Below, in pieces: positions 4,430 through 26,386 of a stretch of DNA of 58,518 bases. The stretch comes from Alphaproteobacteria bacterium (GTDB lineage: Bacteria; Pseudomonadota; Alphaproteobacteria; UBA11073). Under the pieces are notes generated by a model. The model was not told the origin of the DNA, did not search any database, and saw only the letters and a program-made list of their open reading frames with translations. Where the stretch lies: NCBI GenBank assembly GCA_013289145.1, contig JABDAM010000006.1, positions 1-58,518 of the forward strand, in the 5' to 3' direction. Position 1 is the first letter of the stretch. Each line of letters opens with the position of its first letter. A program made the position numbers and the translations under genes.

Positions 4430-4435
4430 TCGCAA

Positions 4436-6584: not shown

Positions 6585-7166
6585 ATGAAACGCTTCCCGC
6601 TTCTTCTGCTTATCTTCTCCCTCTTTCTAACTGGAACGATTGTTATGCCAAAGAAAACAAAAGCCGCTGATCCGGCGCAAACAAGTGCGCCGACCCTGAC
6701 CGATCCCGCCAACACCGTCGTGATGACCTTGGCAGGCGGCGATGTTTACCTGCAATTGCGTCCGGATCTGGCGCCCAATCACGCGGCGCGGATCAAGGAA
6801 CTGGTGAACAGCGGCTTTTACAACGGCATTATCTTTCACCGCGTGATCGATGGTTTCATGGCGCAAACGGGCGACCCCACCGGCACCGGCATGGGCGGCA
6901 GCGGCAAAAAACTCAAGGCGGAATTCACGCCGGAACCCTTTGTGCGCGGCACCATAGGGATGGCGCGCGCCGCATCGCCTGACAGCGCGGACAGCCAGTT
7001 TTTCATCTGCTTTGCCCCCGCATCGTTTTTGAACGGCCAATATACCGTCATCGGCAAAGTCGTTTCCGGCATGGAATTGATCGATAAACTCCCGCGCGGC
7101 GAGCCGCCGGAAAATCCGGGTAAGATCATCGCCATGCACATGGCGGATGCGAAACCCTCAAAATAA
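6585..7166 (+). CDS. peptidyl-prolyl cis-trans isomerase, cyclophilin type, secreted
   Basis: I use the internal start MKRFPLLLLIFSL (signal peptide). Motifs FHRVIDGFMAQTGDPTGTGMGGSG and SADSQFFI are present. The track ORF start at 6492 overlaps the end of purD. Confidence 0.85.
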   Translation: MKRFPLLLLIFSLFLTGTIVMPKKTKAADPAQTSAPTLTDPANTVVMTLAGGDVYLQLRPDLAPNHAARIKELVNSGFYNGIIFHRVIDGFMAQTGDPTGTGMGGSGKKLKAEFTPEPFVRGTIGMARAASPDSADSQFFICFAPASFLNGQYTVIGKVVSGMELIDKLPRGEPPENPGKIIAMHMADAKPSK

Positions 7167-7366
7167 AATTAGGGCCGAAAAAATAGTTGATTAAAGTTAG
7201 ATAAATTTTTATCTCTTAGGAATCTGTTAAGAGCCTTATGTTGTTATAGAAGGGTATTTTAGTGGATTGCTTTTGACTAGAATGCCTTTAAAATCCAATA
7301 GATTGGATTCGAGGCTTTTTTTGCTGCCTCAATCATGCCAAACGCTGTTTTAACGGAGGAAACACA

Positions 7367-7978
7367 ATGCAGCTTCGCAACCAAAAGGGTTTTACCCTAA
7401 TTGAAATCGCGATCGTTTTAACGATCGTGGGCCTTGTTATCGGGGGGATCTGGCTTGCCGCATCTACGGTGATCAATAACAACAAACGCCAAACCCTGAA
7501 TGCCAATATCGTTCAGGTTGTTCAGAACGTTAAAAGCCTTTTTGCCGGCCAGGGTTCTGGCGCGGTAACGACTGGTTTCACCCAGGCAAACGGGGTTAAC
7601 GCAGGGATTTTCCCGCCTGCGATGCTGGATGCGAACGGAAATCCTCCGGGTGTTGTCACGCCGTTTGACGCTTCCAACCCTGCGACAGGTAAAGACAGCG
7701 TAACCATCGCGGCATCCGGTGCGAACGGCATTAAATTGGTTGTCGGCGCGAACGCCGGTCTTATTACAACAGATTCTTGCACGTCTCTGCTAACAACGTT
7801 GGGAAGCCAGCAAAATATCAGCAAGCTTGGCATTACGTCTTTGGCGGGTACGGCGGGTACGGACCTCAGCGCGGGCGGTACGGCGCAGGTAACTGCTGCT
7901 GCTGCTGCGAGCGCTTGCACGACAGCGGGAAGCGGTACAGTGGGTAACTCCGTTACGGTTATCTTCAGCGCAACCTAA
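7367..7978 (+). CDS. prepilin-type N-terminal cleavage/methylation domain protein (type IVb-like pilin, paralog 1)
   Basis: MQLRNQKG|FTLIEIAIVLTIVGLVIGGIW: Gly-Phe cleavage motif, Glu at +5 and a hydrophobic helix. The C-terminal half has a Cys pair (TDSCTSLL ... ASACTT). An SD (GGAGGA) lies upstream and a terminator downstream. Confidence 0.8.
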   Translation: MQLRNQKGFTLIEIAIVLTIVGLVIGGIWLAASTVINNNKRQTLNANIVQVVQNVKSLFAGQGSGAVTTGFTQANGVNAGIFPPAMLDANGNPPGVVTPFDASNPATGKDSVTIAASGANGIKLVVGANAGLITTDSCTSLLTTLGSQQNISKLGITSLAGTAGTDLSAGGTAQVTAAAAASACTTAGSGTVGNSVTVIFSAT

Positions 7979-8000
7979 TTAACCCTGTAATTCATTTGAA

Positions 8001-8032
8001 AACCCCGGCGGCCATGCTGCCGGGGTTTTTCT
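8001..8032 (+). terminator. rho-independent terminator after pilin paralog 1
   Basis: Stem CCCCGGC (8003..8009) pairs with GCCGGGG (8019..8025), followed by TTTTTC. Confidence 0.75.
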
Positions 8033-8105
8033 TTGCCCCAGTCTTCATAATGTCTTCATAATAGCGTAAATTTTATATGTTACGATTCAGCCAGGACGGT
8101 TTCGA

Positions 8106-8714
8106 ATGTTTTCATCTTTAACATCTAAACTGCGTGGCCTAGGCCGCTCAATTTCAGGTTTTACCCTGCTGGAGGCCACAATCGTTCTGGCGATTTTGGG
8201 AATTGTCGTCGCCGGAATTTGGATCGCGAGCGCCGGCGCCATCAATGCGCAAAAGAAAAAACGCCTTGCTGAGGACGTGCTGACCACCGTCGCCAATATT
8301 CGCGACTATGTCAAAAATATTGATATCCCGGCGGGAAAGTCGCTCACGACCGCGGATATCCAAAACCTGGGATTGTTTCCGGCGGATGTCGTGCGTAACG
8401 GCGTCACCATAAATCCCTACAGCGGAATTTTTCAGGCAACCGCCGATAATAATCAAATCGTCATCATTGTGAATGGGCTGACCACTGACGCTTGCGTGGA
8501 TTTGCTTTACAATCACTTCGGCGGCTCAAGCAATGTCACGACCGGCAGCGCGACCACCGGCAACCAACCGCAAGACATCGGTTTTCTGGGCTATAGCACG
8601 GGCGCGGCATTTCCGCCGCAAAATACCAGCGTGACTTTTACCGCCATAACAACCGCCTGTAATGCGCCGCAGGGATCTGCACTGCCGACCTTCTATCTTT
8701 CGTTCAGCCCCTAG
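8106..8714 (+). CDS. prepilin-type N-terminal cleavage/methylation domain protein (type IVb-like pilin, paralog 2)
   Basis: 18-residue leader followed by G|FTLLEATIVLAILGIVVAGIW. Cys pair TDACVDLL ... TTACNAP. Confidence 0.75.
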   Translation: MFSSLTSKLRGLGRSISGFTLLEATIVLAILGIVVAGIWIASAGAINAQKKKRLAEDVLTTVANIRDYVKNIDIPAGKSLTTADIQNLGLFPADVVRNGVTINPYSGIFQATADNNQIVIIVNGLTTDACVDLLYNHFGGSSNVTTGSATTGNQPQDIGFLGYSTGAAFPPQNTSVTFTAITTACNAPQGSALPTFYLSFSP

Positions 8715-8721
8715 GCCATAA

Positions 8722-9444
8722 ATGATTTTCGCGCTTTTCATTATCTTTGTCTTCGCCGGGATTCTCAGCTTTGCGATGTTCGGTTCGCAGCCGAATGTCG
8801 CCACGCCGGCGGGACAGGTTTATGCCGCCAACATGACTGTTTTCCACCAGGCCGCGATGCTGCAATGGAGCGCGGATTTTACCGCCAATCCCGCCACTTC
8901 TTATACCAACTGCCTTCCCAACAGCACTTGTACCTATTTTATGAATCAACAAATTTATCCGGGCGCGCCCGCAGGGCAGCTTGCGGCTAATTGGCCGGAA
9001 TATAATTCCCTGGTCCCTGAAGGTTCGAGTTCAGGCTGGCAATCTTTTTTAGTCCGCAATATTGACGGCATCAGTTTGAACAACGGCTCGCGCGATTATA
9101 TCCTGACCATCTTTCGTGGCTTTGGCGCGGCCACCAGCACGACCACGACCGGTTCCGGCGCAGGCGGCATTTCTGCCGATAACGTTAGCTTGGGCCTGGC
9201 GAATACCGTGACGGAGCGATCGGGTTTGGGATTACTGAATTGCACCGGCGGAGCGGCCGGTTCGTGTCAATTTACGCGTTTCGCGGCGGACTCCACGGGC
9301 GCCGATAAACCGCTGCAATTCAATGTTGGCATTTTCATTGGCGCGGCTCCCAATTACGCTTTCAGCGCTGCTGACCTTGCCGCTAACAGCACCACCGGCC
9401 TGAACGGCAAAGTCGCGATGATGACCCAGGTTTCCGGGAATTAA
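8722..9444 (+). CDS. membrane-anchored Cys-containing hypothetical protein, possibly PilM-like pilus accessory protein
   Basis: 240 aa with an N-terminal TM helix and no G/FTLxE motif. The segment QVYAANMTVFHQAAMLQW loosely resembles the conserved N-terminal region of R64/PAPI-1 PilM as I recall it. Two Cys pairs. It lies 8 nt downstream of pilin 2. The PilM assignment is weak. Confidence 0.5.
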   Translation: MIFALFIIFVFAGILSFAMFGSQPNVATPAGQVYAANMTVFHQAAMLQWSADFTANPATSYTNCLPNSTCTYFMNQQIYPGAPAGQLAANWPEYNSLVPEGSSSGWQSFLVRNIDGISLNNGSRDYILTIFRGFGAATSTTTTGSGAGGISADNVSLGLANTVTERSGLGLLNCTGGAAGSCQFTRFAADSTGADKPLQFNVGIFIGAAPNYAFSAADLAANSTTGLNGKVAMMTQVSGN

Positions 9445-9445
9445 A

Positions 9446-9721
9446 TTAGGCGCTTTTGATTTGTTTTTTCACGTCGCGCAGCGCGGCGGACAATTTGCTC
9501 GCGGGCGTCGCCAAAACATAAGCATCCAGACCGCCATTATGCTCGATCGTGCGCAGGCCATGCGTGGTCACGCGCAATTTCACCGCGCGTTTCAACTTTT
9601 CCGACCAAAGGCTGATGGGCTGCAAATTCACATCAAACCGGCGGTTGGTTTTGTTGTTCGCATGGCTGACATTATGGCCGGTCATAGGCTTTTTGCCGGT
9701 TACATCGCATTGGCGGGACAT
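9446..9721 (-). CDS. rpmB: 50S ribosomal protein L28
   Basis: 91 aa. [29 protein letters not shown] is the canonical L28 N-terminus. Confidence 0.95.
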
Positions 9722-9792
9722 GGGGACTTACTCCTGAATGGCTTTGAGGGGTGGTTTTGGCCTAATTATACCCCAAATGTCAAGGAAATTTT

Positions 9793-9859
9793 GAGGAATT
9801 AGGCGTTTAGGAACCCTGCCTTCCTAATTCCTATAACTCCTGAAATCCTAGTTCCTAAA
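9793..9859. repeat. Rep-A TAGGA-type palindromic intergenic element, copy A
   Basis: GAGGAATTAGGCGTTTAGGAACC ... TTCCTAATTCCT ... ATCCTAGTTCCTAAATC. The arms are complementary and share motifs with copies at 25708, 28618, 35574 and 39036. Confidence 0.7.
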
Positions 9860-10978
9860 TCATGCCGCCCAGGCGCTGGTTTCCAGGTCGCTGAGTTTAT
9901 CCAGCAGGTAATCCACGTCGTCCCGGCTCATGCCGCGCGGGTCGGTGAGGATGCGCTCCACCAGGCGTTTGCGGTAGCGGTTAACGTCGTCCGGACCGCC
10001 GTCGAAATTGGTTTCATGCGCGATTTCCAGGGCGTGCCGGATCGCGGGCATAAAATTATTGCCCAGACTGGTGCGTTCATAAATCGCCTTTAATCCCGCG
10101 TCGCCCTGGTCGTGAATTAAAATCCGAGCGTTTTTCATCGGCACTTTTGCCGCCACGGCGAGGCAGGCTTCGAAAAATCCGATATCGCCCAGACACAAAG
10201 CGCGCAGCACCAGTGACGGCGTCAAGCGCCCGCTTTGCGACAATTGCCGCGCGACCTCTTCCAGTTCCGCATCACTGCGCCCGCGCCCCAGCATGCGCAG
10301 CGTCGCGCGTTCACGTCCTTGTTGCACGACTTCATCCATGTGCGGCTGATAATCAGGCCGCGATTTAATCTGCGCCGCCAATTCTGCCGTCGCGGCGGAA
10401 ACCAGATATTCCAAAATCCGCGCGGGCACGGCGGGACGCACGGCCAGGCGGCTGGCGATCATGCCCGATGCCGGAAAGCGTTCCAGCATATAAGCCATAT
10501 TATGTTCCGCGATATCCGCGCCCGGATTTCCGGCCAGAGTCGCCACGACTTCTTCATCGCCATGTTCGATCAGACAATTGACGAGGCGTTCGGAAACCTG
10601 TGGGCGCTGTGCGATCGCGCTTTGCCGCGCGCGGCCGGAACGGCGCACCATTTCAATCAAAAAACTGTCCGACAGCATCGGCGAGGATTGTAAAACCGGC
10701 AAAGCCAGACTTTCCACATCCGTCGCCAAACGCTCCGCCACATCGCGCGGCAAATGGCTGGAAGATTTCATCGTCTCAACCACCGCGCGGCGCACGGCGA
10801 CGGCGGCATCTTTGGCCAAGGCGCGGATGATTTCCTCGGCGAGGTGATATTCTTCCGCGCTTAGATTCTCACTATCCAAATTCACGGCGACTTTAACGGC
10901 CGTATCGGCGCGCGATGTTTCCGACGGATCGGTCAAAAGCCGCGCGACATCCGCCGCGGTGAGGGCGAAATTGGACAT
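9860..10978 (-). CDS. DUF2336 domain-containing protein
   Basis: 372-aa helical-repeat protein. The overall pattern matches the alphaproteobacterial DUF2336 family as I recall it. Confidence 0.6.
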   Translation of the reverse strand: MSNFALTAADVARLLTDPSETSRADTAVKVAVNLDSENLSAEEYHLAEEIIRALAKDAAVAVRRAVVETMKSSSHLPRDVAERLATDVESLALPVLQSSPMLSDSFLIEMVRRSGRARQSAIAQRPQVSERLVNCLIEHGDEEVVATLAGNPGADIAEHNMAYMLERFPASGMIASRLAVRPAVPARILEYLVSAATAELAAQIKSRPDYQPHMDEVVQQGRERATLRMLGRGRSDAELEEVARQLSQSGRLTPSLVLRALCLGDIGFFEACLAVAAKVPMKNARILIHDQGDAGLKAIYERTSLGNNFMPAIRHALEIAHETNFDGGPDDVNRYRKRLVERILTDPRGMSRDDVDYLLDKLSDLETSAWAA

Positions 10979-11078
10979 GCCCTCAGCTTAAGCGCTTCGC
11001 CTGGCTTGGCAAGAGATTTTGAGTGCAGCAGATTGTATGCGCATTGTATGCACAAGCGAAATCAGAAAGCGCGAAACT

Positions 11079-12233
11079 TCACGCCTGAAGGTTGATGCCT
11101 TCCGCCGGACGGATGGGTGTCTGGCGGGCAGGACGGGCCAATTCCTCCAGCACCACGACGGAGGCTTTGGCCGAAAGATCGCTTACTGTTTTTTCCACCA
11201 CCTGCAACAACCGTTCCGGATCCGCTTCGCGCCAGTTTTCCGGCAATTCAATCACGGCTTGGCCCGTTTCAAAGGACAGGGATTCCACCAGGGTTAAAAT
11301 CCGCTTTGTATTGCTTTTGACAACCTCCAAGGCTCCGCCAATCGTCTGGACCCGCCACAGAAAATTATACCTTTGCTCCAGCGTATCCTTATTTTCCTTG
11401 CGCTCTTTATTCTGGCGCCGGACTTCGCGCTCCGCCACCATCAGTTCCGCTTCTCTTGCAGGGTCGCACAAAATGGCATGGGTGCGATTCATGAGATCAA
11501 AATAGGGTTTGTATTTCCGCTCGTTCTGAAATGCGGGTGCTGTGCCATTCCAAATATACCACATTATCCGGCGGCATGCCGCTTTCAAGCCCGGCGGAAA
11601 GGGAAGCTCCGTTTTGTTTCCGGTACAGCCGAAACGGAATTTGTCCCTTGCATAGGCCTGATAAATAAGTTCTTCCAGTTTGCCCAATTCCCGGGGCTGC
11701 CCGCCAGCAAGTTTAAAGGCCGCAACTGTTCGAAAATCATCTCTCTGATAGCGTTCATGGTTTTGATTTTCACCATAGGCTGTATAGACTTCCAGATGCG
11801 TCTTTTCTCTTTCTTCTTGCAATTCCTCTTGGTAGCGTTCGCATTGCACACGCAGAGAACTCACCGCCTCCTCCGCGACATCCTCATACCGCTGCCAATG
11901 CTCCGCGATTTCATCCACCGTGACGGCAACGCGTGTTGCACTGAGCGGGCAATCCGTTTCAGCGACAGCGTAAAAACTGGCCGGCAAAAAAGAATCCGTT
12001 CTGATTTTCCGGCAGGTCAGACCGCCCGCCATAACCGTTTCCGGATCAGGCGGGGTCGGCGAACCGCCTTTGCCGCCGCTATTGCGGCCGCCTCTCACAA
12101 TAACCGGCGGCAATCCAGGGTAACGCACAACATAAAGATGGACGCTATCCGTTCCCGGGAAATGTTCAGATTTTCCAATCTTAAAAGCGTCCGTGCCAAA
12201 TTCCATTATCTTTATCCCTAAACTTAGCGTCAT
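11079..12233 (-). CDS. hypothetical protein (large orphan)
   Basis: 384-aa ORF with protein-like composition and a charged coiled-coil centre. The 282-aa ORF on the opposite strand looks like antisense noise. The start is uncertain (alternative MEFGTDAF at 12206). Confidence 0.55.
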   Translation of the reverse strand: MTLSLGIKIMEFGTDAFKIGKSEHFPGTDSVHLYVVRYPGLPPVIVRGGRNSGGKGGSPTPPDPETVMAGGLTCRKIRTDSFLPASFYAVAETDCPLSATRVAVTVDEIAEHWQRYEDVAEEAVSSLRVQCERYQEELQEEREKTHLEVYTAYGENQNHERYQRDDFRTVAAFKLAGGQPRELGKLEELIYQAYARDKFRFGCTGNKTELPFPPGLKAACRRIMWYIWNGTAPAFQNERKYKPYFDLMNRTHAILCDPAREAELMVAEREVRRQNKERKENKDTLEQRYNFLWRVQTIGGALEVVKSNTKRILTLVESLSFETGQAVIELPENWREADPERLLQVVEKTVSDLSAKASVVVLEELARPARQTPIRPAEGINLQA

Positions 12234-12309
12234 CCTGCCACCGCCAAATCTTGCAAGTCAATAAATTTCTGGTGTAGGGTAGGGCGCACATAAACTGGAA
12301 AGCAAGCCC

Positions 12310-13422
12310 ATGCACATCGGCGTCCCCAAGGAAATCAAAAACCACGAATACCGCGCGGGCCTGACGGCCAGCAGCGTGAAAGAGCTGACCTCGCGCGGCC
12401 ATAACGTGACGGTTGAAACCAGCCTCGGCGTAGGCGTCGGCATTTCCGACGATGAATACGTCAGCGCGGGCGCGAAGGTCGCGGCGAGCGCGAAAGACAT
12501 CTTCGCCAGCGCCGATATGATTATCAAGGTCAAAGAGCCCCAGCCGCAGGAATGCGCGATGCTGCGGCCCAAACAAATTCTGTTTACATTTTTACATCTC
12601 GCGCCCGATCCGGAACAAACGGATGCACTGTTAAAATCCGGCTGCTCCGCGATCGCTTATGAAACCGTGCAAACGGCGGACGGCCGATTGCCGCTGCTCA
12701 CGCCCATGTCCGAGGTCGCGGGGCGTTTGTCTATCCAAGTCGGCGCGCATTATCTGGAGCGCGAACACGGCGGACGCGGTATTTTACTGGGCGGCGTGCC
12801 GGGCGTGGCGCCCGCGGATATTTTGGTTATCGGCGCGGGCGTGTCGGGCAGCAACGCCATGCACATGGCCGTCGGCATGGGCGCGCGTGTTTCCGTTTTG
12901 GATAAAAACCTGAACCGCCTGCGCGAGATTGACCAGATTTACCAAGGCCGTGTGGAAACGTTATACGCCAACGCAGGCACGCTGGAATATAAACTGAGTT
13001 ACGCGGACCTCGTCATCGGCGCGGTCCTCGTGCCCGGCGCGGCCGCGCCGAAACTGGTGACACGCAAACAATTGGGCTTGATGAAGCAAGGCAGCGTAAT
13101 GGTCGATATCGCCATCGACCAGGGCGGTTGTTTTGAAACGTCAAAACCCACCACGCACGACAATCCGGTTTATACGGTCGACGGCATTGTGCATTACTGC
13201 GTCACCAACATGCCCGGCGCCGTGCCGCGCACGAGCAGTTTCGCGCTGAATAACGTCACGCTGCCTTATGCAGTCGCGCTTGCCGATCATGGTTTGGATG
13301 CCTTGAAAAAAGATCCCGCCCTGGCCGCGGGATTAAACGTGCACGCAGGCAAACTCACCAACGCCGCCGTCGCCGAAGCGCAGGATAAAAAATACATTGA
13401 GCCCTTAAAGGCGATGACGTGA
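12310..13422 (+). CDS. ald: alanine dehydrogenase
   Basis: 370 aa. MHIGVPKEIKNHEYRAGLT, the Rossmann motif VIGAGVSGSNA and AVLVPGAAAPKLVT. Confidence 0.92.
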   Translation: MHIGVPKEIKNHEYRAGLTASSVKELTSRGHNVTVETSLGVGVGISDDEYVSAGAKVAASAKDIFASADMIIKVKEPQPQECAMLRPKQILFTFLHLAPDPEQTDALLKSGCSAIAYETVQTADGRLPLLTPMSEVAGRLSIQVGAHYLEREHGGRGILLGGVPGVAPADILVIGAGVSGSNAMHMAVGMGARVSVLDKNLNRLREIDQIYQGRVETLYANAGTLEYKLSYADLVIGAVLVPGAAAPKLVTRKQLGLMKQGSVMVDIAIDQGGCFETSKPTTHDNPVYTVDGIVHYCVTNMPGAVPRTSSFALNNVTLPYAVALADHGLDALKKDPALAAGLNVHAGKLTNAAVAEAQDKKYIEPLKAMT

Positions 13423-13982
13423 AAAAAACATTAGTTTTTTTTCTGCTCACGCTGCTTTCCGCCTGCGGTTTCCACCCCATGTACGGCAATCAGGGCGCAA
13501 CGAAAAATAATACGGCGGCGCTCTCGAACATTCATGTGAATTTCATCCATGATGAATTGGGCCAAGCCTTGCGCAACGCCGTGCTGGACCGGATGCCGGT
13601 GCCCGTCGCCGAGCCGCGCTATCAATTGAATGTTTCGATGACGGAGGCGCAGATCGGCATTGCCCTCACTTCTAACAATACCGTAACGCGGCAGCAGTTG
13701 CGCGATACGCTGCATGCCGAACTGATCGACACACGCACGCAGGCGATGGTGTGGAAACAGGATTTGTTTGCCACGTCAGGCTATAACATTCTGAATTCGC
13801 AATTCTCGACTTTGACCGGACAGCAAGACGCCGAAGAGCGCAACGTCAATGATCTGGCCGAACGCCTGGTCGGTATGCTGGGCGGCTTTTTCGACCGCCC
13901 GGCGGAAGACCAAAAACTCCGTCCGCCGCCACCGCCCGTGCCAGCGGATTCGTCGATCTATTCGCATGTGTTTGGTAAATGA
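13419..13982 (+). CDS. lptE: LPS-assembly lipoprotein LptE
   Basis: 187 aa. Lipobox LLSACGFHPMY, LptE-like fold pattern and the conserved position upstream of holA. Confidence 0.7.
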   Translation: MKKTLVFFLLTLLSACGFHPMYGNQGATKNNTAALSNIHVNFIHDELGQALRNAVLDRMPVPVAEPRYQLNVSMTEAQIGIALTSNNTVTRQQLRDTLHAELIDTRTQAMVWKQDLFATSGYNILNSQFSTLTGQQDAEERNVNDLAERLVGMLGGFFDRPAEDQKLRPPPPPVPADSSIYSHVFGK

Positions 13983-15013
13983 AACTCCAAACCCGCGAGA
14001 TTGATAAATTCCTGGCCGCGCCGCCGCCGGTCTGCCGCGTTTTTGTGTTTTACGGCCCTGATGGCGGCCTGGTGACGGCGCGCGGGCGCGCGATGGCGCA
14101 AAAGTTCGCGCCGGATTTGAATGATCCTTTTGCCGTGACGCTGCTCGACGGCGATGATCTCGCCAAGAATCCGTCGCGCCTGATCGCCGAAGCGCAGATG
14201 CTCGCACCCAGTTATTTAGGGGGTGGTGGGCAGCGCCTGATCTGGCTGCGCGAGGCGGATGAAAAAAACGCGGGCAAGGCGGTGGAAAATCTGCTCCTTG
14301 CCGAAAACATTCCCGCCATCGTCGTGATCGAAGCGGGTGAGCTATCGCCCAAAAGCACCCTGCGCAAGTTGTCTGAAGCCGCCGCGAACGCCGCCGCCAT
14401 TCCTTGTTACGTCGAAGACCCGGCGCAGGTCGCCGGCTATGTCACGCGTGAACTCGCCGCCGCTGGATGGAAACTGTCGCGCGACGCCGCAACCTGGTTC
14501 GGGCAAAACCTGGGCGGCGACCGCGGCTTGGTGCAACAGGAACTGGAAAAACTGATCACCTATTTGGGCGCGCCCAATCCCGCGCAAAACAGTGTGGATA
14601 TCGACAAGCTGAAAAACATCGCGGCGGGCGGCGCGGTGCTGGAGGAAGATGAATTCATTGACGCCGTCGGCACGCCCGCCGCCGTTCCCATGGTGCAAAA
14701 ACTGATGGCCGAAGGGCAGGCGGCGCCGAACATCATCCGCACCCTGGGCCGCCATGTCTCCCGCCTTTACGCCACGCAGCTGAAAATCGCGGGCGGCGAG
14801 GATATGAAAAACGCGATGGACGCGCTGCAACCCAAACTGTTTTTCAAACGCGAGAACGCCTTCCGCGCGCAATTGAATAAATTTTCCCTGCGTTATCTCT
14901 CGCGCCTGCGCGGCGAATTGTGGCGCCTGGAGCAGCAGTGCAAACAAACCGGATCGCCGGATGAATTGCTGGTCTCGCAGCTCGTGCTGCTCCTCGGCGC
15001 GCGCGCCGCATAA
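13979..15013 (+). CDS. holA: DNA polymerase III subunit delta
   Basis: 344 aa. It starts overlapping the lptE stop (the lptE-holA arrangement is widely conserved), and the N-terminal VFVFYGPDGGLV pattern fits. Confidence 0.8.
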   Translation: MKLQTREIDKFLAAPPPVCRVFVFYGPDGGLVTARGRAMAQKFAPDLNDPFAVTLLDGDDLAKNPSRLIAEAQMLAPSYLGGGGQRLIWLREADEKNAGKAVENLLLAENIPAIVVIEAGELSPKSTLRKLSEAAANAAAIPCYVEDPAQVAGYVTRELAAAGWKLSRDAATWFGQNLGGDRGLVQQELEKLITYLGAPNPAQNSVDIDKLKNIAAGGAVLEEDEFIDAVGTPAAVPMVQKLMAEGQAAPNIIRTLGRHVSRLYATQLKIAGGEDMKNAMDALQPKLFFKRENAFRAQLNKFSLRYLSRLRGELWRLEQQCKQTGSPDELLVSQLVLLLGARAA

Positions 15014-15078
15014 ATATAATAGGCGTGACAAGGCCGCCGCTTTCGCGTTAAAATAACGGTTCAAATCAAGGGTCGTTA

Positions 15079-15717
15079 ATGCGCGCTATTTTTTCGTCCT
15101 GCCCCCATAATGCCCGGGGTTTCACACTGGTTGAAGTGGTGGTTGTTCTGTCCATCGTCGGGATCATCATCGGCGGCGTTTGGCTTTATGCCGCCCAGGC
15201 GAATAATGAAGTAAAACAACAAAAACTAACCTCCTTTGTTGTGCAAACCCTCAGTCAGGCGCACCAGTTCTTCAGCAATAATTCCATGCCCGGCACGAGT
15301 GGCGACATCACGGACAACGCCATCATCGCCAATATTTTTCCATCCGAGGTATTGGTGGCAAACGGCGGCGCGACAGCGTCCGGCTATAACGCCCAAGACC
15401 CTTATTTGCTGAACGGAGCGCCCGCGAATTTCACGCTCACTTACACCGTTAGTGCTGGGGGCGGCAGCGGCTCGTCCGCCGGGACGACGGGCATTAACCT
15501 TTTTGTTCCCGCTATTCCCAACGACGCTTGCGTTCATTTGCTTTCCTATCTGGCGAGCAATCCCAGCGTTATCCAGCAATTGGGATTGGTCAGCTATAAT
15601 TCTTCCGCCTCCAGCGGCGGCAATTCCTTTTCAAGCAACGCAAACGTGGCGGCATTCTCCACGTTTTGCGGCCAGCGCGGCGCCAATATGGGCCTTTATC
15701 TCTCCGCCATCATGTAA
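15079..15717 (+). CDS. prepilin-type N-terminal cleavage/methylation domain protein (type IVb-like pilin, paralog 3)
   Basis: MRAIFSSCPHNARG|FTLVEVVVVLSIVGIIIGGVW. Cys pair NDACVHLL ... STFCGQ. Confidence 0.75.
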   Translation: MRAIFSSCPHNARGFTLVEVVVVLSIVGIIIGGVWLYAAQANNEVKQQKLTSFVVQTLSQAHQFFSNNSMPGTSGDITDNAIIANIFPSEVLVANGGATASGYNAQDPYLLNGAPANFTLTYTVSAGGGSGSSAGTTGINLFVPAIPNDACVHLLSYLASNPSVIQQLGLVSYNSSASSGGNSFSSNANVAAFSTFCGQRGANMGLYLSAIM

Positions 15718-15718
15718 A

Positions 15719-16312
15719 ATGCCGAAACGGTTTTCTTCTCCTCTCGCGCGGCAACAAGGCTTCACCTTGATTGAATTGGCGATTGTCCTCAGCATCGTCG
15801 GTGTGATTATCGGCGGCACCTGGTATTACGCGGCGCAAACTTTGAACGATATCAAAAAAAATAAGATTATCGATCAAACCCTGCAAATCATTCAAAACAC
15901 CAAACGCACTTTTGCAAATGTGAATACCGCGCCTGTCAGTTCGACCGCAACCAATCTTACTGCATCCGCCATCACCGCCGGAATTTTTCCAAGCGATATG
16001 ATCGTCAACACAACCCAAGCTGCCGATCCCTATGGCCAGCCCGTGGTTCTGAGCACCTCCAGCGCCCAGATTTCCAGTTTTCATTTGCAATACAATGTTC
16101 GAACCGACGTATGTATCGCGCTCTTAACTAAATTGATTGCCAATACCACCACGCGGAACCGTTATGGCATTATCGGATATAACGCCAATGGCACTTTTAC
16201 GCCCGTTAGTTACAACTCCGTCGTTCCCATCTCAACACTGGCGAGTTCTTGCAGCAGCGCGAATGGCAGCAACACCCTGGTCACAACCGCGGTTGATTTC
16301 AGCTATAAATAA
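15719..16312 (+). CDS. prepilin-type N-terminal cleavage/methylation domain protein (type IVb-like pilin, paralog 4)
   Basis: I use the internal ATG at 15719 (MPKRFSSPLARQQG|FTLIELAIVLSIVGVIIGGTW). Cys pair TDVCIALL ... ASSCSS. The longer track ORF from 15452 overlaps paralog 3. Confidence 0.75.
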   Translation: MPKRFSSPLARQQGFTLIELAIVLSIVGVIIGGTWYYAAQTLNDIKKNKIIDQTLQIIQNTKRTFANVNTAPVSSTATNLTASAITAGIFPSDMIVNTTQAADPYGQPVVLSTSSAQISSFHLQYNVRTDVCIALLTKLIANTTTRNRYGIIGYNANGTFTPVSYNSVVPISTLASSCSSANGSNTLVTTAVDFSYK

Positions 16313-16381
16313 ATGCGGTTAACTTTTTTGAATTTTCTGAAATCCTTGCTTTTTATACCCTGAAAGCGTTACCCTGCGCGC

Positions 16382-18370
16382 ATGAATTCTTACGATGTCA
16401 TCGTCATCGGTGGCGGTCACGCAGGTACTGAGGCCGCTGCTGCTTCCGCGCGTATCGGCGCACGCACGCTACTGATCACGCATAAACGCGAGACTATCGG
16501 CGTCATGTCCTGCAACCCCGCCATCGGCGGTTTGGGTAAAGGCCATTTGGTGCGCGAAATCGATGCGCTCGACGGCATCATGGCGCGCGCGATTGACCAG
16601 TCCGGCATCCAGTTCCGCATGCTAAATGCCAGTAAAGGCGCGGCGGTGCGCGGCCCGCGCGCCCAAGCGGACCGCAAGCTCTACCGACAGGCGGTGCAGG
16701 ATATTCTATTCAATTACCCCAATCTAACAATCATTGAAGGCGCGGTTGAGGATTTGATCATCGCTCCTAATTGTCACCCCGGGCCATCGGCGCGCAAGCG
16801 CCGCATGATTGTCCCGTGGTCCGCCGAGACGCTTGAGCACTGTTTCAAAACCGAAAACACTTTTCTCGCGGAACCACAGACCCCGGGACAAGCCCGGGGT
16901 GACAGTGCGGGAATGCGTTGCGGGGGTATCATCCTCGCTGATGGCACGGAAATCCGCGCAGGTGCCGTTGTTTTAACAACCGGAACTTTCCTTAACGGCC
17001 TCATCCACCGCGGCAAAGAAACCATCCCCGCCGGCCGTGTCGGCGACGCGCCCGCGCTGAAACTCTCAGACCGCCTTGCCGCGCTGAACCTCAACCTCGG
17101 CCGCCTCAAAACCGGCACCCCGCCGCGCCTGGATGGCCGCACGATTGATTGGTCCGTCTGCATTGAACAACCCGGCGATGAAACGCCTATCCCTTTTTCA
17201 TATCTGAATTCTCGCATCTCCGTCCCCCAGATTCCTTGCCATATCACGCATACTACGCTCGCCACTCACCAGATCATCCAAGATAACCTCCACCAATCCG
17301 CCATGTATTCCGGCCAGATCTCCGGCACGGGTCCGCGTTATTGTCCCTCGATCGAAGACAAAATCGTCCGTTTCGCCGACAAAAGCCGCCACCAAATCTT
17401 CCTTGAACCCGAAGGCCTGGATGATCCCACGATTTACCCCAACGGCATTTCCACTTCCCTGCCTACGGACGTTCAAGACCAGATCCTAAAATCTATTCCC
17501 GGCCTAGAAAACGCAATTATATTCCAATATGCCTATGCAATTGAATATGATTATGTTGATCCAAGGGAATTATATTCCACATTAGAAACCAAAAAACTCC
17601 CCGGCCTATATTTGGCTGGCCAGATCAACGGCACCACCGGCTATGAAGAGGCCGGCGCCCAAGGCCTCCTCGCCGGCGCCAACGCCGCCCTGTCCTTGTC
17701 CGGCAAACTCAGCCTAACCATCGGCCGCGACCAAGGCTACATGGGCGTCCTGGTCGACGACCTCATCACCCGCGGCGCGACCGAGCCCTACCGCATGTTT
17801 ACCAGCCGCGCTGAATACCGCCTGAACCTCCGGGCCGATAACGCCGACCAGCGCCTTACCTCCCTGGCTGTCACCCTAGGTCTGGCCGGGCCCGACCGAG
17901 CCGCCGCCTGGGAGGCCAAGTCCACCCTCCTGAATAGCGCTCGTGAAACCTGTTCCAAACTTTCCGCTACCCCAGCCGCCCTGGGAAAAGCCGGTCTGGC
18001 CGTTAACCAAGACGGCATCCGCCGCTCCGTCTTTGACCTCCTGCGCTACCCTGATATCACCTGGGACCGCCTCACCACCATCTGGCCGGAACTGGCTGTC
18101 ATAAATGCCGCCAGTCGCGAACAAATCGAAATCGACGCCCACTATTCCGGCTACCTTGACCGCCAGGAAGCCGACATCCTAGCCTACCGCCGTGACGAAG
18201 CTCTGTCCCTTCCCACCAACCTGGACTACGCCGCTATCGGCAGCCTGTCCCGTGAAATTCAAGACAAACTCTCCACCGCCCGCCCCGAAACCCTAGGCGC
18301 GGCCGCCCGTATCCAAGGCGTCACCCCCGCCGCCGTCACCGCCCTCCTGCGCCATGTCCGTAAAAGATAG
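16382..18370 (+). CDS. mnmG: tRNA uridine 5-carboxymethylaminomethyl modification enzyme MnmG (GidA), carrying an in-frame insertion
   Basis: 662 aa. [40 protein letters not shown] and [17 protein letters not shown]. It is about 44-48 aa longer than expected in the VEDLI...[10 protein letters not shown] loop. Confidence 0.95.
16772..16904. mobile_element. 133-bp element bounded by inverted repeats, lying in frame inside mnmG (MITE/RPE-like)
   Basis: Perfect 13-bp terminal inverted repeats TGTCACCCCGGGC (16772..16784) and GCCCGGGGTGACA (16892..16904). A nested hairpin CCCCGGG-ACAAG-CCCGGGG lies at 16881..16899. The element encodes the extra peptide [43 protein letters not shown]. Confidence 0.65.
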
Positions 18371-18995
18371 TCCAGACGCGAATGTTTCACGTGAAACACT
18401 CGCCCTCTACGAACAAATCCTGAAAGACTGGCAAAGCCGGATTAACCTGGTGTCTGCATCCACCCTATCAGACCTCTGTAACCGCCATTTCCTGGACAGC
18501 CTCCAACTCGTTCCCGTTATCCAATCCATAACGCCTGCCCCGGCGCAGGCCGGGGTTTCATTTGAAACAATCCTGACCGACCTGGGTTCTGGGGCTGGAT
18601 TTCCTGGGATGGTCCTAGCGCTATCTGGTATTCCCAATGTCCACCTCATCGAATCCGACCAGCGTAAATGCGCTTTCCTGAGAGAAATTTCTAGAACCTG
18701 TTTCGATGTTTCACGTGAAACATTCCGTCCCACCATTCATAACGACCGGATCGAGAAATTAAATCTGAAAGCCGATATTATCACCTCTCGCGCTTTTGCT
18801 GATTTGAACAAAACCTTGGAAATCTCGGAAAATCTGCGTCATCCTGATACCCTATACCTCCTCCTAAAACCCCTGGACCTGCAAAAAGAATTGACAGAAG
18901 CCGCGCAAAACTGGTATTTTGACCACGAAATCATCCCTTCTATATCCGACGTCCGGGGTTGTATTCTGAAAATTTCCCGCGTAAATAAAAAGTAG
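18354..18995 (+). CDS. rsmG: 16S rRNA (guanine527-N7)-methyltransferase RsmG (GidB)
   Basis: 213 aa. VSRETL N-terminus, the SAM motif [10 protein letters not shown] and the position between mnmG and parA. Confidence 0.9.
18383..18398. other. parS centromere-like site 1 (TGTTTCACGTGAAACA)
   Basis: Perfect 16-bp palindrome identical to the parS consensus. It lies inside the 5' end of rsmG, where it encodes VSRET, about 600 bp upstream of parA. Confidence 0.85.
18707..18722. other. parS centromere-like site 2 (TGTTTCACGTGAAACA)
   Basis: A second perfect copy of the same 16-mer inside rsmG, again read as VSRET. Confidence 0.85.
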
Positions 18996-19003
18996 GAGCT
19001 ACA

Positions 19004-19789
19004 ATGCCTGCCAAAATAATAGCCATCGCCAACCAAAAGGGCGGCGTGGGCAAGACCACCACCACCGTCAACCTGGCCACCGCCCTGGCGGCTATATATA
19101 AGAAGGTATTGGTCGTAGACCTGGACCCGCAAGGCAATGCCTCCACCGGCTTAGGAATTCCCTCAGCTGCGCGGACTAAAGGCGTTTATGAACTGATCTT
19201 CGACGGCCTGGCTGTATCCGACACCATCGTTAAAACAGAAGTCCCCGGCCTGGACCTGATCCCCGCCACCATGGACTTGTCCGGCGCTGAGATCGAACTG
19301 GTCGGAATAGATGAACGGGAGTTCAAATTAAAGTCCGCTTTCCGCGCCGCCACTGAATATGATTATATTCTTATCGACTGCCCGCCGTCGCTAGGCCTGC
19401 TCACGCTGAATGCCCTGGTCGCCGCGCACTCCGTCCTCGTGCCATTGCAATGCGAGTTCTACGCGCTCGAAGGTTTATCACACCTCTCGCGCACCATCGA
19501 ACGCACGCGCCGCGCGCTGAATCCAAACCTGCATTTCGAAGGCATCGTTTTGACGATGTACGATAAGCGCAATTCCCTCTCGAACGGCGTCGCCGCCGAC
19601 GTGCGCGCCCACTTCCCCGGCATCGTTTACGACACGATGATCCCCCGCAACGTGCGTGTTTCCGAAGCGCCATCACACGGCAAACCCGTGATGATCTACG
19701 ACATGAAATCATCCGGCTCGATCGCCTACATCCAATTGGCGAAAGAATTTTTGGCAAGACAAAACAATACGCCCGCCGAAGCAGCCTGA
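19004..19789 (+). CDS. parA: chromosome partitioning ATPase ParA
   Basis: 261 aa. Deviant Walker A IAIANQKGGVGKTTT, and DLDPQGNAS. Confidence 0.95.
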   Translation: MPAKIIAIANQKGGVGKTTTTVNLATALAAIYKKVLVVDLDPQGNASTGLGIPSAARTKGVYELIFDGLAVSDTIVKTEVPGLDLIPATMDLSGAEIELVGIDEREFKLKSAFRAATEYDYILIDCPPSLGLLTLNALVAAHSVLVPLQCEFYALEGLSHLSRTIERTRRALNPNLHFEGIVLTMYDKRNSLSNGVAADVRAHFPGIVYDTMIPRNVRVSEAPSHGKPVMIYDMKSSGSIAYIQLAKEFLARQNNTPAEAA

Positions 19790-19795
19790 TAATCC

Positions 19796-20584
19796 ATGAA
19801 AGTTTTGATTAGCCCAATCAATGTTGCAGAAGCCGTCATTGCGCATGATTGCGGCACGGATATTATCGATATCAAAAATATCGATGCCAAAGTGACGGTG
19901 AATGGTGTAGCTGGCGGCTCGCTTGGCGCCAGCACAGCGGAAATTATTCGCGAAGTCATTACAACGATCAGCGATCCCAAGGTAATCTTTAGCGCAACAC
20001 TCGGCGATTTATCCGGCGATGATATTCCCCTTGCCCCTGCGCGCGCGCAAGATTTCATCGGCTGCGGCGTGAACTATATCAAGGTTGGCCTGTGTGATTT
20101 TGAAAATCCCGAACAAGCCACACGATTGATGAAAGCGGTGCGTGCGGTTTGTCCAAAAGAAATCACGCTGGTTGCCGCAGGCTACGCCGATGCCGCGCGC
20201 TTCGGCGGATTAAAACCGAACCAATTAATTAAAATCGCTTATCAATCCGGCGCGGATATGGTGATGCTGGATACTTTTGTTAAAGATGGAAAAACTTTAT
20301 TGCACGCCTTATCACCCAATGAATTATTCGGATTTACGAAAGCCGCGCATGATTGCAGGCTTGGTGTCGCCCTGGCTGGCTCAATTGGTATAGATGATTT
20401 TCCAATACTGCATGTCGTAGGCGCGGATGTTGTTGGTTTGCGCGGCGCGGTATGTGATCAGCATGATCGCACGACCATGATTAATCCCGATAAAGCCAAA
20501 GCTTTGATGGCCGCAGCTCGGGCGTTTCAATTTCAACCGGCGCCGTCACAAAGCTTCACCGCAGCCGCGCCGCATGCTTTTTAA
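19796..20584 (+). CDS. MfnB/DUF556-like protein ((5-formylfuran-3-yl)methyl phosphate synthase family)
   Basis: 262 aa. LISPINVAEA..G.DIIDIKN, YIKVGL, VAAGYADA, MLDTFVKDGKTLL, ALAGSI and VGLRGAVC match my recollection of the MfnB (UPF0264) TIM-barrel family. It is on the same strand as parA and parB, 6 nt after parA and 12 nt before parB. Confidence 0.65.
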   Translation: MKVLISPINVAEAVIAHDCGTDIIDIKNIDAKVTVNGVAGGSLGASTAEIIREVITTISDPKVIFSATLGDLSGDDIPLAPARAQDFIGCGVNYIKVGLCDFENPEQATRLMKAVRAVCPKEITLVAAGYADAARFGGLKPNQLIKIAYQSGADMVMLDTFVKDGKTLLHALSPNELFGFTKAAHDCRLGVALAGSIGIDDFPILHVVGADVVGLRGAVCDQHDRTTMINPDKAKALMAAARAFQFQPAPSQSFTAAAPHAF

Positions 20585-20596
20585 TGAGGAGATCCT

Positions 20597-21760
20597 ATGT
20601 CTGCAACGAATACCCCTGAACAAACCGCGGCGGAAAAAGCGGCGATAGGATTGCAACAGGCGATCGCGGATTCGACGCGTGTGATGGTGAAGGCGCATGC
20701 GGTCTTGGCGGCGGAAAAAACCACGGAAAAACCGAGCGCGCCTAAACGCGGGTTGGGGCGGGGGCTGGATGCCCTGTTCGCGGATGGCGAACAAGGGCGG
20801 GAGGCAAGAAGCGAGAAGCGAGAAAGTGAAATTGTGAATGCAGCGGTTGTGAAGCAAGAGGCGGGATCTCACGCCTTGCCTCTCGCTTCACAATCTCCGC
20901 GCACGCTGCCCATCACCGCGCTCATCCCCACGCCGTTTCAGCCGCGGAAAACTTTTGGCGCGGAGGATATGGAATCTTTGGTGCAATCCATTCATATGCA
21001 TGGGATTTTACAGCCGTTGCTCGTGCGTGCAGCCCCGGGTCAGCCGGATAAATATGAAATCATCGCGGGCGAGCGGCGTTGGCGGGCGGCGCAGCAGGCG
21101 CGGTTGCATAATGTCCCGGTCATTATCAAAACTTTGGATGACCGCCAGGCATTGGAACTCGCGCTGATTGAAAATATTCAGCGCGCGGATCTGACGCCGA
21201 TTGAAGAGGCCGAAGGCTATCAGCGCTTGATCGAAGAATTCGGCCACACGCAAGATGCGCTGGCGAAAGTCGTCGGGAAATCGCGCAGTCATATGACGAA
21301 TACGTTGCGTCTGCTGCAATTGCCCGCGGGCGTGCGCGAGATGGTGGGGCGCGGCGAATTGTCTGCGGGCCATGCGCGCGCGCTGGTCGGCCGCGCGGAC
21401 GCCCAAGAAGTCGCGGACATGGCGGCGCGCAAAAAATGGTCGGTGCGCGACATGGAAAAATTCACGCGCAAGCAAAAACAGCCGGTGGATTTCGCGCGCA
21501 TGTCGATCCAGGAACTCAACGCGCGGCGTCATGCCAAGAATGATAAAGATAATCCCTTTGGGCCTTTTCCGGGCATCGATCACGCCATGCCCAAAAGTCC
21601 GGATGTGGCGGCGCTGGAGGATGAAATGTCCTCGCTGCTGGGGCTGCGGGTGGAAATCCATTCCATGGCCGATGCCTCTGGTGTGCTGGGCGTGCATTTT
21701 TCCTCGCTCGATCAACTGGATGATTTGCTGCAAAAACTGACGCGGGCGAGCAGGGGATAA
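20597..21760 (+). CDS. parB: chromosome partitioning protein ParB (long form)
   Basis: 387 aa. RGLGRGLDALF, GILQPLLVR, IIAGERRWRAA and the HTH region. The N-terminal linker contains a Rep-B copy. An SD (GAGGAG) lies upstream. Confidence 0.93.
   Translation: MSATNTPEQTAAEKAAIGLQQAIADSTRVMVKAHAVLAAEKTTEKPSAPKRGLGRGLDALFADGEQGREARSEKRESEIVNAAVVKQEAGSHALPLASQSPRTLPITALIPTPFQPRKTFGAEDMESLVQSIHMHGILQPLLVRAAPGQPDKYEIIAGERRWRAAQQARLHNVPVIIKTLDDRQALELALIENIQRADLTPIEEAEGYQRLIEEFGHTQDALAKVVGKSRSHMTNTLRLLQLPAGVREMVGRGELSAGHARALVGRADAQEVADMAARKKWSVRDMEKFTRKQKQPVDFARMSIQELNARRHAKNDKDNPFGPFPGIDHAMPKSPDVAALEDEMSSLLGLRVEIHSMADASGVLGVHFSSLDQLDDLLQKLTRASRG
20801..20895. repeat. Rep-B GCGAGA-type element inside the parB linker region
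   Basis: GAGGCAAGAAGCGAGAAGCGAGAAAGTGAA is followed by the imperfect hairpin TTGTGAAGCAAGAGGCG-GGATCTCA-CGCCTTGCCTCTCGCTTCACAA. It is read in frame as EARSEKRESEIV...HALPLASQS. Confidence 0.6.
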
Positions 21761-25434: not shown

Positions 25435-25708
25435 GTTCGGATTCGGAAATTATTTTTGCCGTTAAAATCCCGCACTTCTCTTCATCCGCCTGGGTGATCC
25501 ATTCTCCCGAAGGATAGCGGACGATGGCGGGGCCTTCGGCGCAGCGGCCGAGACAACCGGCGCGGTTGACGCGGATATCCTTGCGCCCGCGCGTGGCGGC
25601 CTTGAGCTGATCGAACAGCGGGCGGGCGCCGCGCTGGCAGCAATCGCCCTGCGGGTCATCCGCCGGGCGTTCGTTAAGGCAGACGAAAATGTGCTCTTGG
25701 TAGGTCAT
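25424..25708 (-). CDS. (2Fe-2S) ferredoxin domain protein (thioredoxin-like)
   Basis: 94 aa. HIFVCLNER...CC..G and CLGRCAEGP provide the four-Cys pattern of thioredoxin-like [2Fe-2S] ferredoxins. Confidence 0.75.
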   Translation of the reverse strand: MTYQEHIFVCLNERPADDPQGDCCQRGARPLFDQLKAATRGRKDIRVNRAGCLGRCAEGPAIVRYPSGEWITQADEEKCGILTAKIISESEPKV

Positions 25709-25788
25709 TAGGAGTTAGGAACTAGGAGTTTAGGGGGGTGAAGTCCAGGGACCGGCGGGATTTGCCTAAATATAATGTTCTAACTCCT
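25708..25788. repeat. Rep-A TAGGA-type palindromic intergenic element, copy B
   Basis: TTAGGAGTTAGGAACTAGGAGTTTAGG ... CCTAAATATAATGTTCTAACTCCT. It abuts the ferredoxin start codon. Confidence 0.65.
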
Positions 25789-25856: not shown

Positions 25857-26105
25857 TTAGAACAGACCTACGAAGCCGGTTGTGCCGGTGGATTTCGTGG
25901 GGGTCGCTTTCTTTTTCTTCGCGGCGGGCTTTTTCTTCTTAGCTGCCGTTTTTTTCGCCGCTGGCTTTTTGGTAGCTTTCTTAGCTACTTTTTTTTTTGC
26001 CGCTGGCTTCTTTTTAGCTACGGTTTTTTTAGCAGCTGGTTTTTTCTTCGCTGCTGGTTTTTTTGCAGCGGTCTTTTTCTTCGCTGCTGCTTTTTTCACT
26101 GCCAT
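25857..26105 (-). CDS. histone H1-like Lys/Ala-repeat nucleoid protein
   Basis: I use the internal start MAVKKAAAKKKTAAKKPAAKKKPAAKK, which has a strong SD (AGGAGG) upstream. 82 aa made almost entirely of AAKK/PAAKKK repeats. Confidence 0.75.
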   Translation of the reverse strand: MAVKKAAAKKKTAAKKPAAKKKPAAKKTVAKKKPAAKKKVAKKATKKPAAKKTAAKKKKPAAKKKKATPTKSTGTTGFVGLF

Positions 26106-26386
26106 GGTTGGTTCCTCCTGAGTTGTGATCAACCATTTATGAATATACGCGATTCGCGCGAAGATGCAGAGACGGTCCGCAAGTGCAATCATTAACTTTG
26201 CATCCGATGCAAATTTTTTCCTTGCACGCGATTTTTTTGCTTCGCGTTGTTTTGCATGATCACGCGCAACGCCATGAATTCCAATGCTTTGCGAATGATA
26301 TGATGAAAAAAATTTTACGCTTTATGATCGCGTCAAAGCATGCGTGGGCGGATTTTAAACTGTTGCATTGTTGCAACTGCGCTAGG

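Follow-up and report, generated by a model that had tools for sequence, protein, structure and literature searches.

The mnmG (gidA) gene of a free-living soil alphaproteobacterium contains 144 nt of extra DNA that are missing from its closest orthologues. We consider it probable that this DNA represents a head-to-head dimer of CGTC/TGTC-tagged REP units, non-autonomous selfish DNA that inserted in frame and is now carried as a loop of about 48 residues in a working enzyme. All positions refer to the window, which is the whole stretch of 58,518 nucleotides that was analysed. The in-frame insertion of a palindromic repeat is real, but events of this kind have been described before, and only the recurrent use of one loop of MnmG and an anomaly in sequencing depth go beyond the literature.

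In the explanation that we favour, the dimer would consist of two units (each with the 8-bp stem ACCCCGGG, the 5-nt loop CTTGT and a short tail), which have their tags outward and a 53-nt spacer between them. It would have inserted into the mnmG codons for a beta-hairpin turn after the split from the nearest sequenced relatives, and we infer from the dimer architecture of the family that it arrived as a single unit. Out of all such insertions, the persisting ones would be those that are in frame, free of stop codons and located at a tolerant surface turn, and the insert would then be translated as a disordered loop. A hairpin expansion of 24 nt (8 codons) in the left unit would have occurred later with the frame kept, and a change by a multiple of three fits continued selection on the frame.

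The extra DNA in mnmG and its anatomy

The coding sequence of mnmG is intact (16382..18370, forward strand) and specifies the insert-bearing protein of 662 aa, as assigned from the ORF list, from matches to MnmG structures in the PDB and from the Pfam GIDA domains for P0001. In the comparison with PDB MnmG structures (E = 3e-203), two blocks are aligned, residues 3-128 and 180-661, and residues 129-179 are unaligned to solved MnmG structures, including that of E. coli. The extra DNA relative to close orthologues, as delimited by protein alignment, by DNA alignment to the relative L001 and by translation, covers 16772..16915 on the forward strand and corresponds to 48 codons (CHPGPS...GDSAGM). 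According to the DNA alignment with L001 and the sequence itself, it is made up of a 133-bp element and of 11 further extra nt (GTGCGGGAATG; 16905..16915, forward strand), with which the length of the insert becomes divisible by three.

None of the nine closest MnmG orthologues (P0002-P0010; 613-627 aa, with a BLASTP identity of 71-79% to the window protein) has the segment: in the protein alignment they possess 2-3 residues where there are 50 in the window. Their loop reads VEDLIV-(E/V)N(N/Q)-RCxG-VILADG, as compared to VEDLII-APN followed by the 48 extra residues in the window. The preliminary description had proposed such an alignment to find the insertion boundaries, which are hereby set at 16772-16915. 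It had also counted about 66 loop residues as compared to about 18 in E. coli; the alignment changes both counts, to 68 and 20, and leaves the excess of 48 as it was. A homologue of MnmG with more than 79% identity to the window protein was not found among the 5.8 billion proteins searched, and an exact-sequence look-up of the window protein matched no contig.

Across the insert, the frame of the gene is the sole stop-free one of the three forward frames, and the ORF list bears out the open frame of 662 aa and the peptide as first quoted. All residues that are invariant among 17 orthologues have been kept in the window protein. Placement of the loop on a structure, which had also been suggested initially, was done with an AlphaFold2 model based on the ortholog alignment (mean pLDDT 71.6). 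Residues 132-175 have a pLDDT <50 and are located between strands 122-129 and 178-185, so that the insert is placed at a beta-hairpin turn; the loop is predicted to be disordered and to lie at this turn in the FAD-binding region of MnmG. The 144 nt are a multiple of three, contain no stop codon in the gene's frame and fall on a surface turn. A functional enzyme with a floppy loop of about 48 residues is therefore the most likely product of the gene, and it is for this reason that the copy would have survived in a slowly evolving gene.

The first 13 nt of the 133-bp element (16772-16784) are TGTCACCCCGGGC, and its last 13 nt (16892-16904) are the exact reverse complement, GCCCGGGGTGACA; no further matches without mismatch exist in the window. 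Pairs of perfect inverted repeats with arms of 13 nt or longer and a distance within 200 nt were found at only three loci in the window, while a mean of 0.35 pairs per window was obtained in first-order Markov simulations, and the 13-bp inverted repeat pair exceeds chance. The perfect 13-bp termini of the preliminary description are thus correct to the base, but they are part of a longer structure, as the full terminal inverted repeat extends over 26 nt, with matches at 25 of these positions, and is split in the left arm by a mini-hairpin of 24 nt. Without this mini-hairpin, the element comprises 109 nt.

Each end of the element is formed by one REP unit. The right unit (16877..16904, reverse strand) is intact and consists of the tag TGTC, a perfect 8-bp stem (ACCCCGGG and CCCGGGGT) that encloses the 5-nt loop CTTGT, and the tail CTG; it was identified by a hairpin scan, by k-mer depth and by core matches in genomes. 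The nested hairpin CCCCGGG-ACAAG-CCCGGGG, which had been noticed at the outset, is located at 16881-16899. The left unit (16772..16823, forward strand), with its tag outward, was recognised from its sequence, from a comparison with the family consensus and from a self-alignment in which the 24 nt were left out. It has the same tag and the same stem (ACCCCGGG and CCCGTGGT, with one mismatch), the tail CCG, and a loop that is enlarged by the 24 nt, which follow upon the initial C and precede TTGT. The first stem pair of the window element is A-T and the second is C-G. The mini-hairpin itself (CATCGGCGCGCAAGCGCCGCATGA; 16785..16808, forward strand) is predicted to form its own stem-loop and is frame-neutral with its 8 codons; it is unique in the window even when 3 mismatches are allowed, and is missing from canonical units. 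The 53-nt spacer between the units (16824..16876, forward strand), delimited by the fold and by the one covering contig in the source metagenome run, has complementary ends (CCGAGA / TCTCG) and a centre that is richer in A+T.

A 153-nt region folds as RNA with -78.2 kcal/mol (z = -6.8, with none of 200 shuffles as good) and as DNA with z = -6.95 relative to shuffles. There is no Rfam family at the gathering threshold over the whole window, and an E-value scan at the element gave nothing better than E = 0.07. An intrinsic terminator was not found at the element, and promoter-like sites are not in excess. At the insert, which is flanked by AAT and GTG, no target-site duplication is visible, and no empty-site allele was found.

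As a conserved gene is interrupted and as the extra segment starts with Cys, it might be argued that this segment is spliced out as an intron or intein, from the transcript or from the protein. We consider this extremely unlikely, because 48 residues are far below the size of an intein, no His-Asn is present ahead of the downstream junction, no intron or other RNA family is detected at threshold, and the segment has the anatomy of a REP dimer instead.

Copies of the REP unit and relationship to known repeats

Copy number was assessed in run X1, a soil metagenome represented by k = 31 contigs and the single public run in which the window is present; no RNA-seq run contains the gene. Contig breaks occur at 16877-16904, the position of the right unit, where depth is about 1465 as compared to 37.5 and 16.1 in the two adjoining contigs and to 10-40 across the window. 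The right-unit stretch is common to 20 X1 contigs with differing flanks, these being copies within the metagenome that are not assignable to this organism. Positions 16785-16867 are covered by a single X1 contig, even when likeness down to 80% is accepted, so that repetition concerns the terminal hairpin and not the 133 bp as a whole; a second copy of the 53-nt spacer or of the whole element was not found in this run. The preliminary description had proposed to count copies of the 133-bp element in the genome; its terminal hairpin is multi-copy, but its full length is not, since the spacer is single-copy in X1 and the unit is a REP hairpin of about 28-37 nt. Within the 58.5-kb window, the hairpin scan detected one intact unit of the right-unit type only. 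A scan of JGI metagenomes for the spacer yielded two loci. In one of them (L122), a similar spacer is accompanied by a CGTC-like unit that is degenerate, and the second locus looks like a chance match; this is too weak to define a spacer subfamily.

The 23-nt core CCCCGGGACAAGCCCGGGGTGAC was scanned in one genome per species and has exact matches at 118 loci or more, the matches listed being from Sphingomonas, Parvibaculum, Tepidicaulis, Rhodospirillales, Microvirga, Methyloceanibacter and others. The 166 units among the matches listed have the consensus (C/T)GTC-ACCCCGGG-CTTGT-CCCGGGGT-CCA, with CGTC as tag in 93 and TGTC in 69. Of the same 166 listed units, 146 have the tail CCA and 122 have CTTGT as their loop, and the second stem pair is C-G in 137 and T-A in 27. 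Stem position 8 covaries (G-C in 116 of the listed units, C-G in 36, A-T in 11, unpaired in 3), and therefore it is the hairpin itself that is conserved. Among the listed loci, 55 of the 73 pairs that are less than 300 nt apart have their tags outward (GTCA ends outside), with a span of 66-128 nt and modes near 83-87, 94 and 106. Long open frames across the 144 elements in other genomes, again among the matches listed, provided 45 candidates for in-frame copies; on reading, the ten longest looked like spurious G+C-rich frames or like elements located upstream of real starts. The elements in those genomes appear to be mainly intergenic. The 50-aa insert peptide gave no candidates when compared with the large protein collection, an outcome that probably stems from the word index of that search and does not speak for a lack of in-frame copies. 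A literature search with the sequence of the repeat itself returned unrelated primer matches only, and a search for gidA together with RPE returned nothing relevant.

The sequence of the window element fits membership in the superfamily of CGTC-tagged REPs (Di Nocera, De Gregorio & Rocco 2013, BMC Genomics 14:522; PMC3733652). As described in the text of that paper, the tag CGTC is often changed to TGTC, with CCTC being an accepted variant, stems are 8-9 bp and loops 4-5 nt in length, the tail is mostly CCA, and complementary A-T pairs are "almost invariably" found at the first and second stem positions. The units are described there as being mostly organised as HH dimers (tags outside) with spacers of 20-100 bp, the ends of which are often complementary, as occurring in every order of the alpha-Proteobacteria, including Micavibrio, and as having neither a linked transposase gene nor an associated RAYT. 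They are also reported within ORFs in several species, where the dimers encode 20-30 or more residues; the interrupted genes listed in this source (PMC3733652) include those for tRNA-modifying enzymes, and gidA/mnmG is not among the genes that it names.

The window element agrees with this description in its TGTC tags, its G+C-rich stem of 8 bp, its 5-nt loop and its short tails. It also agrees in being a head-to-head dimer, in the complementary ends of its 53-nt spacer, in having an alphaproteobacterial host, and in having no linked transposase among the 60 window ORFs that were scanned. The many copies of the unit in the metagenome run X1 may be a further point of agreement. It differs from the described REPs in the second stem pair, which is C-G and not A-T, in the tails CCG and CTG, and in the extra 24-nt hairpin within the loop of the left unit. 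From the text description in the paper, the unit is closest to CGTC-2 (8-bp stem, 5-nt loop). The hairpins near 803-833 and 1543-1573, to which the preliminary description had drawn attention as being similar, are indeed of the same superfamily; they are CGTC-1-type units (CGTC-ATCCCGGC-GAAG-GCCGGGA(C/T)-CCA), and the CGTC-1-type units of the window are also multi-copy in X1, with a depth of 328.

Rickettsia palindromic elements (RPEs) are palindromic selfish DNA, found in frame in housekeeping genes and carried as extra peptide segments (Ogata et al. 2000 Science 290:347, as summarised in PMC10969869 and PMC3733652). The text of the latter paper assigns two of them from R. conorii to the CGTC superfamily, RPE-6 to CGTC-1 (8-bp stem, 4-nt loop) and RPE-4 to CGTC-4 (9-bp stem, 5-nt loop), and the analogy to RPEs is therefore sound at the superfamily level. 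The initial interpretation as an RPE-like palindrome, inserted in frame and tolerated as an extra loop, has been upheld, given that the orthologues lack the segment, that the loop is predicted to be disordered and that the terminal hairpin is multi-copy. As with RPEs, the insert is in frame in a conserved gene and at a site compatible with the fold; unlike RPEs, it has a host from another lineage, a free-living soil alphaproteobacterium, and its unit would be of a different class, RPE-4 and RPE-6 being compared by their description in the text. RPE-1 is longer (about 150 bp) and has a conserved peptide, whereas the window element is conserved only at its ends of about 28 nt. Judged by the published descriptions, the element probably lies outside the RPE families of Rickettsia.

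REPINs are inverted REP doublets which can fold into one long hairpin and are mobilised by RAYT transposases (Bertels & Rainey 2011; PMC3116915). The window element is likewise an inverted REP doublet that can form one long hairpin, with the doublet as the presumed mobile unit. However, REPINs and RAYTs go with GTAG-tagged REPs while the window tag is TGTC, and no transposase-like Pfam match (including Y1) was obtained for the 60 ORFs that were scanned among the 62 window ORFs of at least 90 aa. Membership in the REPIN/RAYT system fails for these two reasons, the wrong tag and the lack of a transposase in the 60 scanned ORFs. Bacterial MITEs inside genes include ERIC, BOX, Correia, Nezha and the Anabaena MITEs (review PMC10969869). 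The window element resembles MITEs, which are small, non-autonomous and strongly folded, have terminal inverted repeats and occasionally form in-frame fusions; unlike MITEs, it is conserved in a short hairpin unit and not over its full length, and it has no parent IS with matching ends. Classical MITE membership fails because there is no target-site duplication and because there are no full-length copies in run X1.

Sequencing depth and the integrity of mnmG

The depth of the X1 contigs is 13.7 for positions 1-831, 40.4 for 802-1571, 37.5 for 1550-16904, 16.1 for 16877-20867, and 4.5-16.5 onward to the end of the window. A 16.1-kb block (802-16904), which is 100% identical throughout, has about three times the depth of its flanks, and it is delimited by the CGTC-1 unit at 802 on one side and by the right REP unit in mnmG on the other. 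Another X1 contig, with a length of 13.7 kb and a depth of 43.4x, starts with the right-unit sequence and continues into unrelated DNA. As the contig with the 5' part of mnmG is at 37.5x and that with the 3' part at 16.1x, some 5' copies may not continue into an intact gene, and there may be extra partial copies or a REP-bounded amplification.

These data could be taken to mean that insertion or rearrangement has inactivated mnmG, which would then be a young and still undecayed pseudogene, or would exist mainly as truncated 5' copies that end at the REP. The block of about threefold depth ends exactly at the right REP unit and the 43.4x contig departs from that unit into unrelated DNA, both of which speak for this view, and mnmG is dispensable in laboratory bacteria. 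We nevertheless judge inactivation to be unlikely, as the invariant residues of the 17 orthologues are all retained on both sides of the insert, the length of the later 24-nt change is likewise divisible by three, and five other lineages have kept mnmG genes of full length that carry an insert in this loop. Furthermore, the gene order across the junction (AlaDh-LptE-344 aa-pilin-mnmG-rsmG-parA) agrees with that in the relatives L001 and L121, so that the intact gene represents the ancestral arrangement.

The breaks of the k = 31 contigs at the unit and the difference in depth across it would also be compatible with an assembly artefact, where the contig was misjoined through the repeat and the in-frame gene is not a single molecule. 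This is very unlikely, since one contig of 15,355 nt runs from the left junction through the spacer to the end of the right unit, and another carries the right unit together with the 3' part of mnmG. The repeated unit has 37 nt at most, so that longer k-mers or read pairs resolve the join. In addition, the join restores perfect collinearity with MnmG as well as the ancestral synteny, and run X1 has no other mnmG 3' part.

Recurrent insertion in one loop of MnmG

Of the 120 closest MnmG homologues, 107 have a loop of 7-8 residues, while in six of them, the window protein included, it comprises 26-55 residues. The four nearest neighbours of each of the six have no insert (e.g. P0096 lacks it, although it is 93% identical to the insert-bearing P0097), and the six insertion events are therefore independent. 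At least three of the six inserts are CGTC/TGTC-tagged in their DNA (the window, L124 and L125). The insert in P0047 (L124) is a clean CGTC-1 HH dimer (CGTCATCCCGGCGCAGGCCGGGATC...GATTCCGGCTTTCGCCGGAATGACG), that in P0088 (L125) is a decayed TGTCAT...ATGACA dimer, and that in P0108 (L126) begins with CGTCATG. The insert in P0097, seen as a peptide (SLRKQGS...DPRLHGES), mirrors CGTC-1 dimer peptides that are given in the published text (PMC3733652), and in P0011 (L121) the palindrome is another one, of the AAGAGGCAAG type. Judged from these sequences, three or four of the five inserts other than that in the window would be CGTC-type (two of them with both ends shown in DNA), and one would come from a different palindromic family.

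Inserts of at least 12 residues occur at only one other internal site of the protein, near residue 441, where six sequences carry peptides with a VSRET-type motif. This motif corresponds to the palindrome GTTTCACGTGAAAC as in rsmG, and at residue ~441 it is known from peptides alone. The rsmG gene, which follows mnmG, also carries in-frame palindromes. A GAGGCAAG-type motif in mnmE was considered as a further in-frame insert and was rejected, as MnmE can be aligned with its E. coli counterpart over the entire length.

With the same loop having been colonised repeatedly in other lineages, with a very stable structure (-78 kcal/mol, z = -6.8) and with palindromes also in frame in the next gene, a co-option might be envisaged, where the new loop or a strong mRNA hairpin has taken on a function, such as modulation of the MnmE-MnmG interaction, or pausing or processing of the mnmG-rsmG transcript. 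Such a gain of function is quite unlikely, as the sequences of the loop inserts are wholly different between lineages, the nearest relatives do well without an insert, neither an Rfam match nor a terminator was found, and the loop is predicted to be disordered.

Besides the favoured interpretation as a selfish REP dimer tolerated by the protein, a more far-reaching idea has, in our view, a small chance of being correct. The beta-hairpin turn and the second site near residue 441 may be preferred DNA landing sites for small palindromic repeats in Alphaproteobacteria, beyond mere tolerance by the protein, and the REP in mnmG may also end a REP-bounded 16-kb segment that has been amplified or rearranged. 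If true, the six independent inserts in one window of 3-4 codons among 120 homologues, with none elsewhere except at the second site, would reveal the target choice of the machinery that moves CGTC REPs, and the 16-kb REP-bounded segment would show that intragenic repeats can serve as recombination breakpoints.

The REP dimer described here extends the RPE phenomenon, in which selfish palindromes reside within genes of the essential type, from Rickettsia to a free-living soil alphaproteobacterium, and also to mnmG, a gene not previously listed. Since a single loop of MnmG has received inserts independently on six or more occasions, it stands out as highly permissive within an enzyme that is conserved universally, which makes it useful for tagging or loop engineering. 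As the six events are independent, they constitute a small natural data set on the target choice of CGTC REPs. For genome annotation, conserved proteins of odd length in Alphaproteobacteria can reflect REP dimers and need not be sequencing errors.

In-frame palindromes in mnmG and rsmG

MnmG has another insertion hot spot near residue 441 of the protein encoded in the window, where six of its 120 closest homologues (P0038, P0084, P0095, P0105, P0108 and P0109) carry 12–24 extra residues that include a VSRET-like peptide. Judged from these peptides, the extra residues suggest in-frame insertion of a GTTTCACGTGAAAC palindrome. At the MnmG loop that is also occupied in the window, the mnmG gene of P0011, a relative at 70% identity, carries a different palindromic insert, GCAAGAGATAAGAAACAAGAGGCAAG...CTTGCCTCTTGCATCTTGC (positions 5379-5448 of its locus, L121), and positions 20801, 23826 and 36361 of the window likewise carry the GAGGCAAGA motif of this insert.

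The window rsmG likewise contains in-frame palindromes, at 18536-18570 and 18700-18725. One consists of a CCCCGGCGCAGGCCGGGG hairpin followed by GTTTCATTTGAAAC, while the other is a perfect TGTTTCACGTGAAACA, coding for VSRET. The extra residues at both sites are common to the close relatives represented by loci L001 and L121, but are absent from more distant RsmG proteins.

Gene content and other repeats

Among the genes of the window is a set (dnaN, gyrB, mnmE, rho, mnmG, rsmG, parAB) that is usually located close to the chromosomal replication origin. parA (19004-19789) and parB (20597-21760), usually neighbours, are separated here by a gene (19796-20584) whose product has a 4-HFC-P synthase domain (PF04476). 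A 111-aa ORF on the minus strand (25857-26192) is composed of 15–18-nt tandem repeats, and its score against the Pfam family of the histone H1-like protein HC2 is 29.9 bits, below the cut-off of 40.

A further repeat family, made of TAGGAACTAGGA / AGGATTTTAGGA motifs, occurs mostly between long ORFs, at 39038-39134, 28610-28655, 35618-35646 and 25708-25734; at the first of these sites the repeats form an inverted repeat with 34-nt arms that are 88% complementary.

REP-bounded segments and read depth

Two REP units of the CGTC-1 type (the CGTC-tagged family with an 8-bp stem and a 4-nt loop) are found at 802-840 and 1536-1574, with their tags pointing outward and 39-nt arms that are 95% complementary. 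Between them is an A+T-rich stretch of about 700 bp, with a G+C content of 38% compared to 55–57% in the flanking sequence. Its single ORF, an orphan of 206 aa on the minus strand (842-1462), has no match in Pfam or PHROG. The enclosed DNA looks like foreign DNA within a REP dimer.

On a larger scale, a 16.1-kb block with REP units at both ends (802 and 16904) is present at a k-mer depth of about 38–40x in the soil metagenome run X1, the sole public run containing the window sequence, whereas depth elsewhere in the window is 4.5–16.5x in this same run. The higher depth could be due to a REP-bounded amplification, to extra partial copies or to a shared segment.
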